This document shows positions 1 to 8,547 of a stretch of DNA of 16,536 nucleotides, one piece after another. The DNA lies in contig JARKSN010000247.1 of NCBI GenBank assembly GCA_029974275.1, positions 1 to 16,536 on the forward strand, in the 5' to 3' direction. The notes under the pieces were generated by a model. It saw nothing but the letters and a program-made list of their open reading frames with translations. It was not told where the DNA came from and made no database searches. The position numbers and the translations under genes are program-made. Every line of letters starts with the position of its first letter. Position 1 is the stretch's first letter. This stretch comes from Candidatus Hydrogenedentota bacterium. Its GTDB lineage: Bacteria; Hydrogenedentota; Hydrogenedentia; Hydrogenedentales; SLHB01.

Positions 1-103
1 TGCATAGATTCAGCAGCCCGCACAGCAACGCGCAGTAGACGAGCATCTCTATGAGGGTATAACCCGTGTTTCCGGGCGCCGCGCGATGTCCGTTCCTGTC
101 CAT
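1..103 (-). CDS. Prepilin/pseudopilin-like protein, N-terminal part only (runs off the left edge)
   Basis: Not in the ORF track. Manual translation from ATG at 103 gives MDRNGHRAAPGNTG|YTLIEMLVYCALLCGLLNLC, a class III signal (G|aromatic-x-x-x-E) followed by a hydrophobic stretch. The ATG overlaps the upstream stop (TGATG) and is preceded by GGAGG. Confidence 0.85.
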   Translation of the reverse strand, partial: MDRNGHRAAPGNTGYTLIEMLVYCALLCGLLNLC

Positions 104-636
104 CACGCACCTCCCCTGTCTGCGATGAGCGTTTGCAACGATTTCGCGATCCGGGGGCCCTTGGCGACTTTCCACGCGATATGCACGCACACTTCCTTGA
201 GGCCAGGCGTTCCATCGGGCGCCGGCTGAATCGTCAGTGACGGTTGAACATCGACCAAACGATCGAGGCCTTCCGGTGCGTGTATGAACGCCGCGTTTTG
301 CCGGTCCGACAATTCGCTGAATTTCATTGCGCGCAGGGCTTCGATTTCATTTTGCAATGCCGTAGTCACGGCCTGCGTTTCGATAAACACACGCGAACTC
401 GCAAGGGAGTGCTGCATCATCTGAATCGTGGCAAACACCCCGCTGGTCACGATGGCGATGGCTGCGATCATTTCGAGTAAAGAGAAGCCGGAAGAGGAGG
501 ATTTTAACGCAGAGGCGCAGAGGCGCGGAGAAAGAGGAGAAGGAAGGATTCTCTTGGCCGCAGATCGACACAGATGAACACAGATAAGAGTTTCTTTTTC
601 TCTGCGCCTCTGCGCCTCTGCGTTAAAAGTCTTCAT
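103..636 (-). CDS. Prepilin/pseudopilin-like protein (minor pilin type) with a 50-aa repeat-derived leader
   Basis: G|FSLLEMIAAIAIV prepilin cleavage/methylation motif at residues 50-51. GGAGG RBS lies about 8 nt upstream of ATG 636, which is 3 nt downstream of the ATPase stop. No other in-frame ATG/GTG/TTG occurs before the motif. Confidence 0.88.
   Translation of the reverse strand: MKTFNAEAQRRREKETLICVHLCRSAAKRILPSPLSPRLCASALKSSSSGFSLLEMIAAIAIVTSGVFATIQMMQHSLASSRVFIETQAVTTALQNEIEALRAMKFSELSDRQNAAFIHAPEGLDRLVDVQPSLTIQPAPDGTPGLKEVCVHIAWKVAKGPRIAKSLQTLIADRGGA
502..628. repeat. Palindromic element A: 32-bp inverted arms of 8-bp tandem units, enclosing a solo 10-bp-period arm
   Basis: 502-533 TTTTAACGCAGAGGCGCAGAGGCGCGGAGAAA and 597-628 TTTCTCTGCGCCTCTGCGCCTCTGCGTTAAAA are reverse complements at 31/32 positions. 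Internal 558-590 reads CCGCAGATCG-ACACAGATGA-ACACAGATAA-GAG. Confidence 0.95.
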
Positions 637-639
637 CTT

Positions 640-1908
640 CTATCCCTCCGCCGCCGGCAGCACGCGTTGCAGCTCCTCGACCGTTGTGATGCCGCGCGCG
701 GCGCAGTGGAGAGCGGCGCGTTCGAGCGGGACCATGCCCTGGCCCAACGCGACGTCGTGCACCGTGCGCGTGCGCGACCGCGCCAACACGAGTTCCGCCA
801 GTTCCTCGTTCACGCGCAACGCCTCGCCGACGGCCGTACGCCCGGTATAGCCGATGCCCTTGCACGTCTCGCAACCGACGGCCTCGTACCATTCGCCGTT
901 CATCTCGTGCGCTCCGTAACGCGCGCAGAGATCGTTCGGCGGCGTCACGCGGCGTCGGCATTCGGGGCACACGACGCGCACAAGCCGTTGCGCAAGCACG
1001 CCGGTCACCGACGAAGCCACAAGAAACGGTTCGATGCCCATGTCGAGCAGTCGCGTAAAGACGCCCGCCGCCGTTCCGCTGTGAATCGTGCTGATCACGA
1101 GGTGACCGGTGAGGCCCGCTTGAACCGCGAGCCGCGCGGTCTCCGCGTCGCGAATCTCACCCAGCATGATGACCTCCGGGTCTTGTCGAAGGATTGCGCG
1201 AAACGCCGCGTCGAAGGTGAAACCCGACCCCGGCGCGATCTGCGTTTGCGACACGCCCGGCAGTTTGCACTCAACGGGGTCTTCAATCGTCACGATGTGC
1301 GCCGCGCGTCCACGCACCCGCGCGATTTCCTGCAACAACGCGTAGATGGTCGTCGTCTTGCCGCTCGAACTTGGCCCGGTGAGAAGCAACGTGCCCTGCG
1401 GTCGCGCGACGATCTCGCGCAGGCGCGTCACAATGGCGGCATCAAAGCCCAACGCGTCGAGTGCCGGTATCTCGCCCCGCGCGCCCAGCACGCGCACCAC
1501 GACCTTCTCGCCATGCACCGTCGGAAACAACGACACGCGCATCGCCTGCCCGCACGGCGTCGCGTCGGCGTCGATGCGCCCGTCCTGCGGCACGTCGCGC
1601 TGATAAACTGTGATCTTCGCAAGGATCTTCGTGCGTGCGACAATCTTCGCGTGGTGTTGTCGCGGCAACCGCGCGACCTCGTGCAGCAGACCGTCCACAC
1701 GCCACCGCACCGACGTCGCGTCCGCCCACGGCTCGATGTGGATATCGCCGACACCGTGCCGCACGGCCGCCAGGAACAACGCATTCAACGCGTTAGCGAC
1801 ACCCACCTCACCGGTGTCGAGCTCGGCCAACACCTGCGCCTCGACCGCCGCGAATGGGCCGGGCGCGCTGTCGGGCCTGTCGTTATCTAGAATGCGTAAC
1901 GTAACCAC
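640..1908 (-). CDS. GspE/PilB-family secretion/pilus assembly ATPase (short form, about 422 aa)
   Basis: DIHIEP, PQDGR, Walker A GPSSSGKTT, TIEDPVE Asp box, LRQDPEVIMLGEIRD Walker B, TGHLVISTIH His box and a CPEC...CETC Zn motif. Start set at GTG 1908, downstream of an AGGAGG RBS. The ORF-track start (1941) lies inside repeat B. Confidence 0.95.
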   Translation of the reverse strand: MVTLRILDNDRPDSAPGPFAAVEAQVLAELDTGEVGVANALNALFLAAVRHGVGDIHIEPWADATSVRWRVDGLLHEVARLPRQHHAKIVARTKILAKITVYQRDVPQDGRIDADATPCGQAMRVSLFPTVHGEKVVVRVLGARGEIPALDALGFDAAIVTRLREIVARPQGTLLLTGPSSSGKTTTIYALLQEIARVRGRAAHIVTIEDPVECKLPGVSQTQIAPGSGFTFDAAFRAILRQDPEVIMLGEIRDAETARLAVQAGLTGHLVISTIHSGTAAGVFTRLLDMGIEPFLVASSVTGVLAQRLVRVVCPECRRRVTPPNDLCARYGAHEMNGEWYEAVGCETCKGIGYTGRTAVGEALRVNEELAELVLARSRTRTVHDVALGQGMVPLERAALHCAARGITTVEELQRVLPAAEG

Positions 1909-2120: not shown

Positions 2121-3734
2121 TTATAAACTATAAAACAGCGTGTCCGACAGTTGTGAGATCACGCCGAGCGTCGCCACTTCGACCCACATAACACCAAGTC
2201 CAATAATCACCACACACAACGGCAACAGGATATCGAGGAGTATCCGCGCGCGTTTGCTGCTCTGTTGCCGGTAATGGCGTGCGACGTGGCCAAGGCACGA
2301 CGGCAACATCCCGGAGCTCTCACCAACCGCCGCCATCGAACGGAACGACGGCAAGAACAAGCGTTCGCGACGCAACGCATCGGCCAAGGACGTTCCCTGT
2401 TCGACCTTTGCCTGTATCCGTGTTAGCGCGCGCGCATATCCGCGACTGACCGATGCCTGCGCAACATCGCCCAGCGCGACATCCAGCGTGACGCCGTTCG
2501 CGAGCAGCCGTTCCAGCAGCAGACCGATATGTGCGAGATTGTTGCGTCGATAAAAGCCGCCGACCGACAGAAAAAGCCTGCTGCTTAAGGCGCGCGGCGA
2601 CACGATGAAGCGGCGAGAGATGGCGAGGCGGCTAAGCACGTGCCAGAATGTGACGAAAACGCAAAGTACAATGAAGAGAAAGAGGTAGTACTGCTGATAT
2701 TGGGATAAATGGATTTGCCTTTCGTTGTTCATGGTAAACGTGGTGAAGCCGAACAGCTTGCTCACAAATCCGCTGTGCGCTCTAAACAGCACGCCGAAGT
2801 CCATGACCATAGCCTCATACATTGGAAAAATCCAACTGGTGATAAAACTTATGAGGGTCACCAGCGCTGTAACCAGGAAAATAACATACGCCATCTGATT
2901 GCGGCGCGTGGTGCGGAACGCGATGTCGTCGCTGAGGTATACGGCGAGGTCTTTCAGCACGGTTTCGAGCGTGCCGGAACGTTCTCCCACGGCCACGAGG
3001 TCGGTATAGTACGTAGGGAAGAAGCGTGGACGTGTGCGCAGGGCGTCATGCAACGATAGCCCCTGTCGCAGGTCTCGCGCGATCCCGGAAAGCGACGATG
3101 CCGTCAGACCGTTGGGTGCATCGACCACGGCGCGCTCCAACGTGTCCGGCAAAAACGAGTTGCAGCGAATCGCGGATGCGAGCAGTTCGGTAACGTCTGC
3201 CAGCTCGCGTAGCCGCTTGAGCTTGCGGAAGACGATTAACGCGCGGCTACGTGCGCGGTTGGGCAGCAGCAAGACCAGCCAGACAATCCCAAGCGCGATC
3301 ACCATCGACTGAAGGAACCAAACCAGCATGTCTTCCGCGGGTAACCGCTCTTCGGTCAGGATGAACGCCACGTCCAGCAACAAGAACACAAGAAACATCG
3401 CGCCGATAAGACGGATATAGAATGTGCGCTTGCGCCAGAACGGCGACGGGCCGGAGGAAGCAGTTTCGAGGCGTTTGATAGGTTCTTTGGGCGGCTCAAC
3501 GGAGCGTTGCGCTCGCAGCAAATTGAGCGTCATTTCCAACAGAAGCAAACCCAAACCCAATGTCACTAAGGCCGCAACAATATAGCCTGCGATGACATCG
3601 CGCTGGACAAGCCAATAGGTCAACGCGCCCATGAGCAAGAAAGTCGCAGCGACAAACGCCGACACCCAGCCCGTGCTGACGGTTCGCCGCGTTCCGTCTC
3701 TGTCGCGCTTGTCGCGAAAATCGTCCTGCTTCAT
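2121..3734 (-). CDS. GspF/PilC-family platform protein with an extra N-terminal multi-TM extension (about 537 aa)
   Basis: Two T2SS-F repeats (GLSLHDALR...FFPTYYTDLVAVGERSGTL and GTSLADALR...MAAVGESSGML) with intervening TM segments. The likely start is ATG 3734, 2 nt after the upstream paralogue's stop. The longer ORF start overlaps the upstream gene. Confidence 0.88.
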   Translation of the reverse strand: MKQDDFRDKRDRDGTRRTVSTGWVSAFVAATFLLMGALTYWLVQRDVIAGYIVAALVTLGLGLLLLEMTLNLLRAQRSVEPPKEPIKRLETASSGPSPFWRKRTFYIRLIGAMFLVFLLLDVAFILTEERLPAEDMLVWFLQSMVIALGIVWLVLLLPNRARSRALIVFRKLKRLRELADVTELLASAIRCNSFLPDTLERAVVDAPNGLTASSLSGIARDLRQGLSLHDALRTRPRFFPTYYTDLVAVGERSGTLETVLKDLAVYLSDDIAFRTTRRNQMAYVIFLVTALVTLISFITSWIFPMYEAMVMDFGVLFRAHSGFVSKLFGFTTFTMNNERQIHLSQYQQYYLFLFIVLCVFVTFWHVLSRLAISRRFIVSPRALSSRLFLSVGGFYRRNNLAHIGLLLERLLANGVTLDVALGDVAQASVSRGYARALTRIQAKVEQGTSLADALRRERLFLPSFRSMAAVGESSGMLPSCLGHVARHYRQQSSKRARILLDILLPLCVVIIGLGVMWVEVATLGVISQLSDTLFYSL

Positions 3735-3736
3735 CG

Positions 3737-4948
3737 CTAGAACATCCCCGTTAGCGAATTCCCGCCCAGGAAAGTGGGCAGATAGATCGAGACCGCGATC
3801 GCCCCGACGGTCACTGCGATCACGATCAACAATGCCGGTGCCAAGGCCGCGCCGGCAAAGCGGTCGTAGTTCGCCACCCGCCGGTCGTATCCTTCCGCGA
3901 GAAACAGTAGCGTGTCGGCCATATCGCCACGCTCCTCCGCCGAACTCAGCATCCAACAGAACGCGCGCTCGAAACAGCCCGTTTCCTGCAACGACTCGCC
4001 CACGGGGGCTCCAAGCTCAATATTCGAAATGGCCTTGGTCGCGCCCGCGCGTAAACGTCCATCGCCCGCAGCTTCGGCGGCGATATCCAGCGCGTCCAGA
4101 ATCGGCACATCGCTCGATGCGAGCATTCCGAGCGCCCGCGTGAAACGCGCCATCGCGACCGCGCGGTGCATCCGGCCAAGGACAGGAAGGCGCGCCTTGA
4201 TCCAGTCCAGCGCAGGGAGACTTCGAGGCCCCGTCATTCCCCAGCCGCTCAGCAACCCAGCCGTGATGACGAGACCAAAAACCGCCCCCGCAATGGGGAA
4301 AAACCGGAAAAGAGGCAGCGTTGTTCTACTCGTAAGCGACTCGCCTAGCGACAGAAGCAAGCCCTGTTGCGCGCGGTATTCTGGCAAAACTTTCCACATG
4401 AGCAGCAGCAGCACCCCCAGCGCCACCGCTGACACGATCGCCGGATACGCCAGGGCCATTTGCATGCGGTCGCGCAGGGTGGCCATGCGTTGCGAGTATT
4501 GGACGAGGGTCGCGAAGACGCCGGGGAGGTTGCCGGTGCGTTCACCGGCGCGGACCATGCTAATGTAGACGGGCGGGAAGCTCGACTCGTGGATCATCAG
4601 GGCTTCTTCGAGCGAACTGCCGTGGGTGATGTGCTCGTGCATGTCTTCGAGCACGGCGCGAAGCTTGCGGCTAGACACGTCGCGCGCAAGGGCGGCGATG
4701 CTGGGCGCAAGCGGCAAACCGCTGCGGGTGATCGCGAGCATCTGTTCGTTGAAAAGTTCGAGGTCTTCCCAGGTCAGGCGCTGTTTTTGCCGTACGTAGC
4801 CCAGCCGCGCGATGACCGGCTCGACCTTGCTGACTTGCAGCCCCTGTTCTTGCAGCATTTGGACCACGCGTTGCTGCGTGGATTCCTCGATCTCGCCCTT
4901 GATGACGCGCCCGCCCGCGTCCACGGCTCGGTAACGAAATAGTTGCAT
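3737..4948 (-). CDS. GspF/PilC-family platform protein (about 403 aa)
   Basis: Canonical N-terminus MQLFRYRAVDAGGRVIKGEIE, then FPPVYISMVRAGERTGNL, ALAYPAIV, ARFTRALG and a C-terminal SIYLP. RBS GGAGAAGGA precedes ATG 4948. Confidence 0.93.
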   Translation of the reverse strand: MQLFRYRAVDAGGRVIKGEIEESTQQRVVQMLQEQGLQVSKVEPVIARLGYVRQKQRLTWEDLELFNEQMLAITRSGLPLAPSIAALARDVSSRKLRAVLEDMHEHITHGSSLEEALMIHESSFPPVYISMVRAGERTGNLPGVFATLVQYSQRMATLRDRMQMALAYPAIVSAVALGVLLLLMWKVLPEYRAQQGLLLSLGESLTSRTTLPLFRFFPIAGAVFGLVITAGLLSGWGMTGPRSLPALDWIKARLPVLGRMHRAVAMARFTRALGMLASSDVPILDALDIAAEAAGDGRLRAGATKAISNIELGAPVGESLQETGCFERAFCWMLSSAEERGDMADTLLFLAEGYDRRVANYDRFAGAALAPALLIVIAVTVGAIAVSIYLPTFLGGNSLTGMF

Positions 4949-5246
4949 GTCCTTCTCCCGTGAAGCCGCCTGGAAACGCTTTTCGCATACATATGACCGT
5001 CCGGCGCCAAGGCGATCACGCGAAACGCATATTCCCGGTCGAGAGTGGGGGGGGCAGGCTTCTGTTGAGGCGGTCCGGGCGGTTTGCCGCAACGTGCTGC
5101 GTGTGTTTTCACGTTGGATGCATACGGCATGTTCCCGTTCCGTGCGTCTTGACGGGGATGCGAGTCGTCGCATTCACATTTCGATTCGTCCGAACTTCTC
5201 GTCCCATTTTTCGCGCCGGTTTTGCCGTCTCGTTCATTCCTTTGTC

Positions 5247-5417
5247 TTTGTAGCGCCCGGTCTCTGTGCCGGGCGCATGTTGGGGCAAACGACACGACGC
5301 CATCCCTATCGCTCTGGATCAGAGTGACCAGAATGTCCCATCCCTCAAACTGACTTGGCGCACGAATATCGACCCTTGCGCCCAGACGCGCCCGGCACGG
5401 AGACCGGGCGCTACAAA
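5247..5417. repeat. Inverted REP doublet (REPIN-like), GTAG family
   Basis: 5250-5276 GTAGCGCCCGGTCTCTGTGCCGGGCGC and the reverse complement of 5388-5414, GTAGCGCCCGGTCTCCGTGCCGGGCGC, are 26/27 identical. Each is GTAG plus an 8-bp-stem hairpin (GCGCCCGG/CCGGGCGC). The pair is flanked by TTT/AAA with a 111-bp spacer. Confidence 0.85.
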
Positions 5418-5512
5418 AAAGTCGCCGATGACCATTCTCATGCGCAAGTGTTCGGTTTTTGAACACGATCCGTCAACGGGGATCGTTTTCATGACGAAAG
5501 GACAGGCGAGAA

Positions 5513-5528
5513 TGATACAATGTGTATC
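5513..5528 (+). promoter_or_regulatory. Candidate extended -10 promoter (TGnTACAAT) with an overlapping palindrome GATACA-N3-TGTATC
   Basis: TGATACAAT at 5513-5521, about 40 bp upstream of the ATG at 5563. A perfect 6-3-6 inverted repeat spans 5514-5528. Confidence 0.5.
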
Positions 5529-5562
5529 GAGAATGATTGGGGCATCGAGAAGGAGAGTTTTC

Positions 5563-8547
5563 ATGGGCGATACGACGCCAAAAAGGCCGGCCAAGGACCA
5601 TCGTGTTTGTGTTCGGCGGCCCTTCCGGTTCGCGGCGGCGGTTTTTGCGGCGTTGCTGGCGGCCTTGCCGGCGGCGGCGCTGCTGGCGGGCGATGTGGAC
5701 GGGTCCAATACGGTGGACAGCTTGGATGTCCAGATCGCCATTAATGCAGCGTTGCGGCTTCCGGTGCCGACGACGTATTGGCCGGACGTGGATTATAGCG
5801 GCGCTGTCGATGCATTGGATGTGCAACTGGTGATCAATGCGGCGCTGCGGCTCCCGGTCGACATCGACGGCGATGGCATTTGCGACGCCGCCGACGTCAA
5901 TCTCTTCACGCATATCGATTCCTTCGCCATCAACGGCGGGGCCGCCACGGCCAATGATCGCTCCGTCTATCTCAACCACGTATGCATCGGCGCCCCCACC
6001 GACTACATGGCCAGCGAATCAGCGGATTTCGCCGGAGCGCAGTGGCGGCCGTATTCGACGGCGCCGTTGTTCGTGTTGTCGGAAGGAAACGGCGCCAAAA
6101 CCGTTCATTTCAAGGTAAGGCGCTTCGTGAAGGACTCGAACACGCTCAGCGATGCGATAGCGCTTTCCTATGCGCCCACGCCGCCCACGTTGCAGTCGTT
6201 CGCCATCAACAACGGCGCGCCCGCCGCCGCTGGGCGAACCATCATCCTGAACAACATTTGCGTGGGCGGGCCGGACGAATGCCTGGCCAGCGAATCCGCT
6301 TCGTTCGAAGGCGCGGCGTGGCAGCCGTATTCCAGCGCCCCGTCGTTTGCCCTCGCGACGCCTGGCAACGGCGTCAAGACGGTCTATTTCAAGACGCGCA
6401 ACGCCCTTGGCGAATCGGCGACGCTCTCCGACCAAATTTCGCTGAACGAGCCTGTGCCGCCGGTGGTGACCGCGTTTCACATCAACAACGGCGACGCGCA
6501 AACCGGGAACCGGATCGTGACGTTGCATAACGTTTGCCTCAACGCGCCCACGCAGTATATGGCGAGCGGCGCGCCAAGTTTTTCAGGCGCTTCCTGGCAG
6601 CCGTATGCCGCGGCGCCGGCGTTTGTCTTGCCGGCGGGCAACGGGACCAAGACGGTCTATTTCAAGACGCGCAATGCCTATGGCGAGTCGTCCGTCGCGC
6701 AGGACGCGATAGAGCTCAAAGAACTGCAACTCGAGTGGAGTCGGAGCGTATTCGATCTTTCGCGGCGCGACAGCCATGCCGCCGTCGCATTGGGAGACGC
6801 CGTATGGGTTTTGGGCGGCAAGGGCAACGACGGCGCAAAGCTCAACGACGTCTGGCGGTCCGAGGACGGCGCGACGTGGACGCTTGCCACCCCTGCCGCT
6901 CCGTGGGCCGCGCGCACAGGACATGCCGCCGTCGCGTTCCATGGGCGCATCTATGTCATCGGCGGTTTTTCGGCGGCGGGCGCGCAACGCGATGTTTGGT
7001 CATCGGACAACGGCGTCGAGTGGCGCATCGAAACCCTACAGGCGCCGTGGTCGGCGCGATCGGCGCATGCCGCCCTCGTCTACCAAAACAAACTGTGGGT
7101 GATCGGCGGTTTCGATGTCCAAGGAAATCGCGTCAACGACGTGTGGCACAGCGACGACGGCGTCACGTGGTTGCCGAAGACCGCCGCCGCCGCATGGACC
7201 GGACGCGATGGCATCACCGCCGCCACGACCGGCGAAGGCACGCCGGACGCGCGAATGTGGATTCTCGGCGGACGCACCGCGTCGGAATACCCCGTCAGCG
7301 AGGTCTGGTGGTCGGCGGATGGCTCCACGTGGACGCAAGCCGCCGCACCGGGCTGGGAAGCGCGGCACTCCCACGCGACCGTGGTCACGAGCGCCGGCGC
7401 GATGTGGGTGATCGGCGGCATTGGAGCGAACTACAAGTACTTGCGCGACGCCTGGCATTCGACCAACGGCGCGACGTGGACTCGGGCCACGGGCGTATCC
7501 GGCGCGCCGTGGTCGGGACGCGGAAAACACGCCGCGGCCGTGACGGCGGGCGACGTGCTGTGGGTCCTCGGCGGCGAAGACGTGAACGTCACGTCCCTGC
7601 GCGACGTCTGGCACTCAACCGATGGCAACGCCTGGGCCCTCGCCAATGTTGCGATGCAGTGGGACGCGCGCCAAGACCACGCCGCGGTTGTCTCCACAGG
7701 GGCGATCGGATCGTATTTGTGGGTCCTTGGCGGCCGTGACGACGCCGAGAACCGCCTGCGCGATGTCTGGCGCACCGGCGACGGCGCAACGTGGACAAGG
7801 ACGACGGCCTCGGCGGAATGGAGCGCGCGCGCAGGCCTTGCCGCTACTGCCGCCGCCGATGGCAAGCTGTGGGTGTTCGGCGGATCCACCGATGTCGCGC
7901 CGGCAGCCGTGACGAACGATGTCTGGCACTCGACCAATGGCGCAACGTGGCTGCGGCAGACTGCCGGAGCGGAATGGCCGGCGCGCGCATACCACGCCTC
8001 CGCGTCGTTTCTGGGCAAACTCTGGATCGCCGGCGGCATGAACAGCGCCGGCGCGCCGCTGAATGACGTGTGGACTTCCGATACGGGCGCCACATGGACG
8101 AACGCGGGGCCCGCGCCATGGCCGGCCCGATCGCGGCATAGCATGATCGTGTTTTTGGACAAACTCTGGGTCGTCGGCGGCATGGACGCGAATTGGACTC
8201 CGTTCAACGACGTCTGGCACACCCAAAACGGCACGTCGTGGACCAAGGCGAGCGGCGCGGGCGCCCCTTGGTCCGCGCGGGCGGCCGCCGCCATGGCCGT
8301 TTTCGATGGCAAACTGTGGCTGCTCGGAGGCGGACGCTACACGATCGCCACGGGGATCTGGGCGACGTACGCCGATGCGTGGCACTCGGCCGACGGCCAA
8401 ACGTGGGCCCTTGCATTGACGGGAGCCGCTTCGCCCGCCGGACGCTACGGCTGCGCCGCCGCCGCCTATGACGGCAGGCTTTGGCTCCTTGGCGGACTCA
8501 TTTCGGGCGCGCCTATCGATGTATGGCACGCCTCTCTTGCGCCGTGA
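5563..8547 (+). CDS. Secreted modular protein: signal peptide + dockerin-like domain + 3 Ig-like repeats + 12 Kelch/Asp-box repeats (about 994 aa)
   Basis: AGGAG RBS at 5551 and ATG at 5563. Basic then hydrophobic signal peptide. Paired GDVDGSNTVDSLDVQIAINAAL / PDVDYSGAVDALDVQLVINAAL dockerin-type Ca loops. Three ~95-aa FxINxG...W.PY...GNG.KTVxFK.R repeats (~5915-6720). Twelve R..H.A...lWV.GG...DVW.S.DG.TW repeats (~6760-8544). Confidence 0.9.
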   Translation: MGDTTPKRPAKDHRVCVRRPFRFAAAVFAALLAALPAAALLAGDVDGSNTVDSLDVQIAINAALRLPVPTTYWPDVDYSGAVDALDVQLVINAALRLPVDIDGDGICDAADVNLFTHIDSFAINGGAATANDRSVYLNHVCIGAPTDYMASESADFAGAQWRPYSTAPLFVLSEGNGAKTVHFKVRRFVKDSNTLSDAIALSYAPTPPTLQSFAINNGAPAAAGRTIILNNICVGGPDECLASESASFEGAAWQPYSSAPSFALATPGNGVKTVYFKTRNALGESATLSDQISLNEPVPPVVTAFHINNGDAQTGNRIVTLHNVCLNAPTQYMASGAPSFSGASWQPYAAAPAFVLPAGNGTKTVYFKTRNAYGESSVAQDAIELKELQLEWSRSVFDLSRRDSHAAVALGDAVWVLGGKGNDGAKLNDVWRSEDGATWTLATPAAPWAARTGHAAVAFHGRIYVIGGFSAAGAQRDVWSSDNGVEWRIETLQAPWSARSAHAALVYQNKLWVIGGFDVQGNRVNDVWHSDDGVTWLPKTAAAAWTGRDGITAATTGEGTPDARMWILGGRTASEYPVSEVWWSADGSTWTQAAAPGWEARHSHATVVTSAGAMWVIGGIGANYKYLRDAWHSTNGATWTRATGVSGAPWSGRGKHAAAVTAGDVLWVLGGEDVNVTSLRDVWHSTDGNAWALANVAMQWDARQDHAAVVSTGAIGSYLWVLGGRDDAENRLRDVWRTGDGATWTRTTASAEWSARAGLAATAAADGKLWVFGGSTDVAPAAVTNDVWHSTNGATWLRQTAGAEWPARAYHASASFLGKLWIAGGMNSAGAPLNDVWTSDTGATWTNAGPAPWPARSRHSMIVFLDKLWVVGGMDANWTPFNDVWHTQNGTSWTKASGAGAPWSARAAAAMAVFDGKLWLLGGGRYTIATGIWATYADAWHSADGQTWALALTGAASPAGRYGCAAAAYDGRLWLLGGLISGAPIDVWHASLAP

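Follow-up and report, generated by a model that had tools for sequence, protein, structure and literature searches.

The locus

We analyzed contig JARKSN010000247.1 (C70) of a Candidatus Hydrogenedentota bacterium, whose genome (GCA_029974275.1, here G000) comprises 4.38 Mb in 342 contigs, with a focus on an inverted repeat situated between the start codon and the predicted cleavage site of a minor prepilin. The window, i.e., the whole stretch of 16,536 nt, is this contig in full; the public sequencing runs that contain it are wastewater, activated-sludge and digester metagenomes. On the minus strand, two T2SSF-like genes (3737 to 5173 and 2121 to 3956) are followed by a gene for a T2SSE-family secretion/pilus ATPase (640 to 1908; Pfam PF00437, E = 7.9e-103), a pilin open reading frame (ORF) of 177 residues (103 to 636 in the ORF list) and a second pseudopilin gene. 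According to Pfam, one PF00437 gene and two PF00482 genes thus lie upstream of the pilin gene, and a Peptidase_A24 prepilin peptidase gene (PF01478, 74.7 bits) is present on contig C88.

The ATPase gene probably starts at GTG 1908, which is preceded by AGGAGG, and it ends with a TAG at 642-640. The ATG of the pilin ORF (634 to 636, minus strand) is located 3 nt past this stop, and a Shine-Dalgarno-like GGAGG (645 to 649, minus strand) is found within the 3′ end of the ATPase gene, at a spacing of 8 nt from ATG 636. Both the ATPase start region and this GGAGG are retained in L016, a close relative that is about 92% identical in DNA and is described below. In the mRNA sense, the junction reads GGAGGGATAG AAG ATG AAG ACT TTT AAC GCA GAG G...

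The pilin shows the class III prepilin pattern, with Gly at position -1, Glu at +5 and a hydrophobic stretch of about 20 residues past the cut (SSSSG|FSLLEMIAAIAIVTSGVF). The predicted prepilin peptidase cut falls between 487 and 486, i.e., directly after the Gly50 codon (487 to 489, minus strand), and would release a mature minor pseudopilin of 127 residues (103 to 486, minus strand, stop codon included). Orthologues of this mature protein were found in 58 of the 133 genomes of the order. The next pseudopilin gene (2 to 103, minus strand), whose 5′ part is present before the contig end cuts it off, shares a TGATG overlap with the preceding stop and encodes a leader of 14 residues, MDRNGHRAAPGNTG|YTLIEM.

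Structure of the inverted repeat

The element occupies positions 502 to 628. Its 5′ arm in the mRNA sense (594 to 628, minus strand) consists of TTTTAAC and three CGCAGAGG-type octamers, and reads FNAEAQRRREKE in translation; its 3′ arm (502 to 536, minus strand) reads ...SPRLCASALK. Between the arms is a non-palindromic spacer of 57 nt (537 to 593, minus strand), which holds the 3′ half of a second module, of the CACAGATG type (558 to 590). The 35-nt arms are 94% complementary (37 nt and 92% in a separate ungapped scan); they are formed by three tandem octamers with TTNAA ends, and neither arm is a palindrome by itself. The original prediction had described a 127-bp palindrome. An inverted repeat does exist at these positions, but the spacer is not part of it, only 74 of the 127 nt are identical to the reverse complement of the element, and the element is a composite rather than a single unit. 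That is, the CACAGATG-type half-module of its spacer also builds another hairpin, at 1921 to 2124, in the spacer between the T2SSF-like gene and the ATPase gene.

The outer arms of this related composite hairpin are of the CACAGATG type. In G000 it contains a nested 87-nt hairpin of the ACAGGATT type (approximately 1975 to 2064), bordered by CGAAGA and CGAAAA and absent from L016:1560-1760; judging from this comparison, the nested hairpin seems to have inserted recently into the loop of an older one. The spacer in the pilin leader represents what is left of a nested CACAGATG-type hairpin, half of which has been deleted in G000. As to the marks of a miniature inverted-repeat transposable element, the leader copy has inverted arms and no clear target-site duplication. 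Excision of the element with a TTAA duplication would leave 31 nt, out of frame by manual count, and its present length therefore does not reconstruct the insertion event; an ancestral leader of 10 codons, MKTFKSSSSG, is only a guess.

The predicted RNA fold of positions 480 to 660 (minus strand) has an energy of -87.5 kcal/mol, as compared with a mean of -54.5 kcal/mol (sd 4.25) for shuffled sequences (z = -7.8; none of 200 shuffles matched it), and that of the L016 junction has an energy of -126 kcal/mol. Such stability favors an alternative explanation of the locus, namely that the hairpin is kept as a useful RNA or DNA structure, which protects the ATPase message, throttles pilin translation or enforces coupling, translation of the repeat being merely a constraint. 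In E. coli operons, the stems of repetitive extragenic palindromic (REP) elements stabilize the upstream mRNA, and this precedent counts in the same direction. The deletion of half of the inner hairpin in G000 argues against this proposal, as do the results of two scans: no terminator-like T-run was found at the element, and no Rfam family matched it above threshold. Sub-threshold Rfam matches were to eukaryotic microRNA hairpin models (24-47 bits, against cut-offs of 62-211) and were treated as generic hairpins. With the further evidence given below, we consider it unlikely that the hairpin is maintained for its own usefulness.

Reading frame through the repeat

The frame that begins at ATG 636 is free of stops up to G50|F51SLLE, and thus defines a leader of 50 residues. 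There is no in-frame ATG, GTG or TTG between position 636 and the cleavage site, the next in-frame ATG being that of M56, past the cut; nor did manual reading reveal a CTG, ATT, ATC or ATA between the 3′ arm and G|FSLLE. Because no start codon is available between the 3′ arm and the cleavage site, any pilin made from this gene requires that repeat DNA be translated. Moreover, since the start is coupled to the ATPase stop, with no intergenic room, the only viable insert is one that is in frame and stop-free. Most of what the original prediction had stated about the junction therefore stands: ATG 636 is the sole usable start, with a good ribosome-binding site and 3 nt from the ATPase stop; the insert is open in frame and gives a 50-residue leader, as against 14 residues in the neighboring prepilin; and the stem begins 8 nt past the A of ATG 636. 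From the sequence, we infer that translation starts at 636 and that the prepilin is cleaved after Gly50.

An alternative is that initiation takes place inside the element instead, at a near-cognate codon of the spacer in G000 or at an internal ATG or GTG in L016, so that only the 3′ part of the repeat is translated. A start in the loop would avoid initiation beside a closed stem. Against this idea, G000 has no ATG, GTG or TTG in the element, and an internal start leaves unexplained why the frame is open upstream of those codons, in G000 and L016 as well as in three more distant loci discussed below (L030, L036 and L045). When the composition of the leader was shuffled, the probability of an open frame was 0.15 for G000 and 0.04 for L016, each to be multiplied by one third for the choice of frame.

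Conservation among close relatives

A word-indexed protein search yielded two clusters at 90% identity, both with the element. The first consists of P0001, P0154, P0152 and P0153. P0154, from a separate assembly, has the same 50-residue leader; P0152, annotated at NCBI as a prepilin-type protein, has 197 residues, and calling of that gene from an internal ATG gives P0153, with 167 residues. The second cluster is P0002, a protein of 177 residues encoded on an 894-bp contig, which is 65% identical over its full length and likewise has a 50-residue leader, MASINAEAQRRKEQRSLTCVHLCPSVIERSSSPHSLRLCVSALNSCSRSG|FALIE. In an exhaustive search of 1.84 billion protein representatives, the next best match after this clade was only 44% identical; in the representative library, 180 proteins matched the query at E <= 1e-3. 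The element is open and in frame in all public members of the clade (P0001, P0154, P0152/P0153 and P0002). An assembly artefact was considered and rejected, as the same or a related element is found in independent assemblies (P0154, L016, L017 and P0002).

An empty-site allele with a short leader, which the original prediction had proposed to look for, was not found for this clade in the protein clusters, in the exhaustive protein search or in a scan of metagenomes, which returned only L016 and L017; the sole result of a scan of genome contigs was an unrelated Polaromonas contig, matched through the repeat itself. Logan contigs from four public runs end at the hairpin; none bridges it, and no joint shows an element-free form. 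One public run contains the L016-type arm.

L016 and L017, which represent the DNA of the 197-residue form, are identical to each other over 1353 nt, and their flanks are 90.5-94.4% identical to G000. The L016 leader is 70 codons long, with the same ribosome-binding site, ATG and 3′ arm as in G000. Its 5′ arm carries two G>A changes that are uncompensated in the 3′ arm; these changes argue against selection for pairing in the outer stem, and hence against a hairpin maintained for its usefulness. Pointing the other way, no part of the leader is better conserved between P0001 and P0002 than the residues encoded by the arms (13/14, compared with 88/127 in the mature part, counted by eye). The L016 spacer contains a complete inner CACAGATG hairpin, and the two leaders differ by indels of +68 and -8 nt, net +60. 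As a result, the stretch between the indels is read in different frames, as LICVHLCRS in G000 and LSVFLRVHLW in L016; nevertheless, neither has a stop in frame 0, and one to four stops, mostly the TAA of the TTAA ends, occur in frames 1 and 2. By this comparison, what is conserved is the open frame, not the peptide. That the leader sequence differs where the frame differs is as expected for a disposable peptide. The frame has thus been kept open through a 60-nt change in length, a local frame switch and 35% protein divergence.

In the mature part, 11 of 381 nt differ between G000 and L016 (5 synonymous and 6 non-synonymous changes), which corresponds to a dN/dS of 0.37; on this comparison, the mature part looks functional. 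The divergence from L016 is uneven: the mature pilin is approximately 97% identical, and the adjoining ATPase gene approximately 90.5%.

These comparisons also bear on the alternative that in this clade the gene was silenced by the insertion or became dispensable through it, and that the open frame reflects chance or recent history. The strong stem beside the start codon would be consistent with silencing, as would the fact that this is a minor pilin, detected with our query in less than half of the genomes of the order; in addition, the stop-poor modules make an open frame fairly likely. Nevertheless, an intact ORF of 177-197 residues is present in all known clade members over 35% protein divergence, its length has changed in multiples of three, the mature part shows conservative substitutions that spare the blocks conserved across the family, and the downstream pseudopilin is still coupled through its TGATG overlap. 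Thus, it seems to us improbable that the gene has been lost to function. With regard to internal initiation, L016 does offer in-frame starts within the insert, namely an ATG (giving a 40-residue leader) and two GTG codons (33 and 29 residues), and it was one public pipeline that called the 167-residue P0153.

Repeat modules elsewhere in the genome

The modules of the element are dispersed in G000. A 21-nt motif from the arm has 37 matches with up to 4 mismatches (3.6 in shuffled sequence) and 13 with up to 3 (0.2); a 21-nt motif from the spacer has 21 (0.7) and 15 (0), respectively. BLAST with the whole element gave only partial matches, on about ten other contigs, and no identical element in high copy number. 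That is, the copies are few, modular and not full-length. They form short-loop hairpins, which in many cases are stacked together with further octamer modules and a GTAG-tagged REP (GTAGCGCCCGGTCTC...). Genome-wide, hairpins whose arms reach at least 22 nt with at least 85% matching number only 55, and 33 of these have no long open frame running through them. Among eleven inspected module copies that enter a long open frame, in five cases a canonical start is found past the module (C156, C204, C127, C141 and C240), another five look like wrong-frame ORFs, and the last is the pilin leader. As far as the genome sequence reveals, the modules normally reside in spacers and 5′ untranslated regions, and the pilin copy is the exception.

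The prepilin motif matches at 37 sites in the genome, and only the one studied here lacks a start that would give a leader of about 4-20 residues. An enrichment of the repeat in prepilin leaders across the genome, part of the original prediction, is therefore rejected (1/37).

A REP is defined by a GTAG or CGTC tetranucleotide tag, according to the accessible text of PMC3733652. The family GTAGCGCCCGG... of G000 carries the GTAG tag, and its core 12-mers, with approximately 80-90 copies, are the commonest words of the genome other than codon repeats. Within the window, a GTAG-tagged REP doublet (GTAGCGCCCGGTCTC...) at 5245 to 5419 forms a hairpin with 44-nt arms. Four Y1_Tnp matches are found in the genome (C268, C141, C210 and C195). 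The gene on C268, which is RAYT-like (RAYT, REP-associated tyrosine transposase) and located in the region 122014-122982, lies between two GTAG REP doublets, the classic layout of REPINs (REP doublets forming hairpins) and RAYTs. No association of the octamer modules with a Y1 transposase was seen at the two of these four loci that were inspected (C141 and C268); on C141, the transposase gene is flanked by a different palindrome, and octamer modules are found about 700 nt away in another spacer.

A hairpin with arms of CGCAGAGG octamers (TTCAACGCAGAGGCGCAGAGG ... CTCTGCGCCTCTGCGTTGAA) also occurs at 1540-1665 of L078, from a metagenome-assembled genome labelled Polaromonas, a betaproteobacterium, between phosphomannomutase-like and heptosyltransferase-like genes. 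Either the module family crosses phyla, or this contig has been mis-binned.

Survey of the junction across the order

We used the mature part of the pilin as the query and E <= 1e-10 as the orthologue threshold, and analyzed 58 loci, namely that of G000, L016 and 56 others (L063 and L064 were dropped, having no tblastn match). If any ATG, GTG or TTG that gives at least 4 residues is counted, the shortest possible leader in the 56 others has a median of 13 residues and a maximum of 30, compared with the 50 required in G000. The ATPase gene was found upstream in 33 of the 56, with a median of 47 nt between its stop and the cleavage site. Of these 33, 30 have an in-frame start no farther than 10 nt from the ATPase stop, often as an ATGA overlap, which implies that coupling without intergenic room is the ancestral layout.

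Junctions of at least 90 nt are found in 6 of the 33; the other 27 have no room for such a hairpin, which argues against its being a useful structure. Four of the six have an open frame from a start at most 10 nt away from the ATPase stop, and three of these four are built from repeats. The junction of L030 spans 374 nt, with an ATGA overlap and a leader of 126 residues; that of L036 spans 278 nt, also with an ATGA overlap, and its leader has 94 residues; both contain repeats. In L045, a junction of 280 nt with an ATG at +10 gives a leader of 90 residues and is repeat-like by eye. No repeat was recognised by eye in the remaining three: L019 (95 nt, GTG overlapping the stop, leader of 33 residues), L023 (213 nt, ATG at +129, 28 residues) and L060 (127 nt, ATG at +31, 32 residues).

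L030, L036 and L045 are open throughout from the coupled start, and in each the other two frames contain stops; for shuffled composition, the probability of an open frame is 0.03-0.07 in each case, before the one-third chance of frame. The inserts of L030 and L036 recur as dispersed repeats in the respective genomes, where 50 and 40 further matches were found, and the congeners of these two genomes have junctions of 38-56 nt. The L030 insert consists of GTAG REPs and a GGAGACC... module, and that of L036 of GGGACAGTCCCC-type palindromes; these families are unrelated to the one in the G000 leader. That repeats have gathered at the same junction in four lineages could be taken as support for a useful hairpin. 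However, the repeats that fill it in other lineages belong to unrelated families, which speaks against a specific structure. A properly spaced GGAG/GAGG core precedes the coupled start in G000, L016, L019 and L045. The internal candidates lack such a core, with the exception of one TTG in L030, and for this reason too we regard initiation within the insert as very unlikely.

Seven distant orthologues, available as proteins only (P0003, P0005, P0007, P0009, P0015, P0031 and P0139), have predicted N-termini of 36-99 residues with internal repeats, such as INGDSINGDS, RTSHLALRTSHLAL or MFVVPALAG four times. By eye and from recall, these long N-termini look like other repeat families translated at the same position. 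P0008 is a short-leader relative of P0009 and P0015.

A proposed translation of the repeat in a disposable leader

Our favored interpretation is that a non-autonomous hairpin repeat of composite structure became inserted into the first codons of the minor pseudopilin gene, and that it is translated inside the disposable leader because the start codon is coupled to the ATPase stop. From the sequence comparisons, we assign this interpretation as a whole a probability of roughly 0.7. An insert that lands between two coding segments without a spacer would survive only in those states that are in frame and free of stops. Ribosomes would start at ATG 636, probably aided by those that finish translating the ATPase and would thereby unpair the base of the stem; they would then traverse the whole repeat and produce a prepilin with a 50-residue leader. 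Prepilins insert with the N-terminus on the cytoplasmic side, and Gly at -1 is dominant in their recognition. The long, net-positive leader would be expected to stay in the cytoplasm, where the A24 prepilin peptidase of this genome would cut after Gly50 to yield a normal mature pilin. The leader peptide itself would have no function, the open frame alone being kept. With its great stability, the stem probably reduces translation of the pilin or links it to that of the ATPase, an effect that looks like a by-product and not a selected property.

The special feature is that the start of this particular gene is locked to the ATPase stop; prepilin leaders as such are not enriched for the repeat in this genome. 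The notion in the original prediction that prepilin leaders are a safe haven thus holds in part: in-frame reading is forced, and the phenomenon recurs in three lineages, but a single prepilin of the 37 is affected here. Of the outcomes that had been named as contrary to that prediction, such as a pseudogene or a long leader conserved as protein in orthologues lacking the palindrome, none was observed. A broader version, for which we see about even odds, is that start-locked prepilin leaders are a general, lineage-independent harbor for selfish palindromic repeats, with leaders of 50-126 residues, essentially no limit of length for the peptidase, and stems that may set the pilin-to-ATPase ratio. 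In such a harbor, any insert that is in frame and stop-free would be harmless, because the leader is cytoplasmic and is cut off.

Several observations weigh against the interpretation that the repeat is translated in the leader. The Pfam N_methyl match (PF07963, residues 46-64) scores 20.1 bits, slightly under the cut-off of 21.2 bits. A stem this strong, located 8 nt past the ATG, should hinder initiation. The modules are stop-poor apart from their TTAA ends, so an open frame at this locus alone is not very improbable, and the dN/dS value of the mature part derives from 11 substitutions only. L030, L036, L045 and L016 have internal in-frame start candidates, and translation of the whole insert is not forced in these. 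The interpretation relies on sequence comparison; the one RNA run with part of the window is limited to 719-908, within the ATPase gene, and may include DNA. Lastly, pilin leaders are given as <10 residues for type IVa and approximately 15-30 residues for type IVb in the accessible text of PMC3927602, ranges that are exceeded here by the leaders of 50 residues in G000, 70 in L016 and up to 126 in L030.

Relation to known systems

Of described phenomena, in-frame insertion of Rickettsia palindromic elements (RPEs) comes closest; in the part of PMC10969869 that was available, RPEs are reported within protein-coding genes without loss of the product. Both RPEs and the element described here are short, dispersed, hairpin-forming repeats found in frame within genes, a likeness by description. 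The differences lie in the removable leader, the unconserved peptide and the exceptional nature of the copy. RPEs occur in the mature parts of many unrelated proteins, and in some families about half of the copies are intragenic (same part of PMC10969869), whereas here a single copy among those inspected is demonstrably coding, and it is in a segment predicted to be cut off. Likewise, each RPE family has a conserved peptide, according to that text (PMC10969869), while here no peptide is conserved, because relatives differ in frame.

Like REPs and REPINs, the element belongs to the dispersed intergenic palindromes that form hairpins, often nested or as doublets. Its octamer-array arms, however, end in TTNAA and bear neither the GTAG nor the CGTC tag given in the accessible text of PMC3733652. 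GTAG-type REPs are nonetheless part of the translated junction in L030. With type IV pilins that have class III signal peptides, the protein shares Gly at -1, Glu at +5, the hydrophobic helix, an operon with T2SSE and T2SSF genes, and an A24 peptidase gene in the genome. Mycobacterial interspersed repetitive units (MIRUs) are short repeats between operon genes, whose small frames overlap the flanking stop and start, so that coupling is kept; they are thought to encode separate mini-ORFs between genes, whereas in the present case the repeat forms the leader of the downstream protein, to which it is fused. A literature search that did not cover subscription journals found no paper describing repeats inside prepilin leaders.

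If the proposed interpretation is correct, the tolerance of the prepilin peptidase and of pilin biogenesis extends to leaders several times the length of any textbook class, and the locus is a clean natural example of a host neutralizing selfish DNA at the protein level. It would also explain odd 'long N-terminus' annotations of pilins in metagenome-assembled genomes, and serves as a warning that, in gene calling and signal-peptide prediction, leaders of this kind are probably genuine rather than the result of wrongly called starts. Translational coupling predicts that the frame must stay open from the ATPase stop.

Other features of the window

The second T2SSF-like gene (2121-3956, minus strand) is unusually long, at 611 residues as listed, and its best Pfam T2SSF match covers only residues 483-592; its listed extent includes an overlap of about 220 nt with the first T2SSF gene. 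On the plus strand, an ORF of 1093 residues (5266-8547) encodes ten tandem units of approximately 50 residues, at a spacing of 144-165 nt except for the first interval of 291 nt. These units are 60-78% identical in DNA sequence, and three repeats of 276 nt are found upstream of them.

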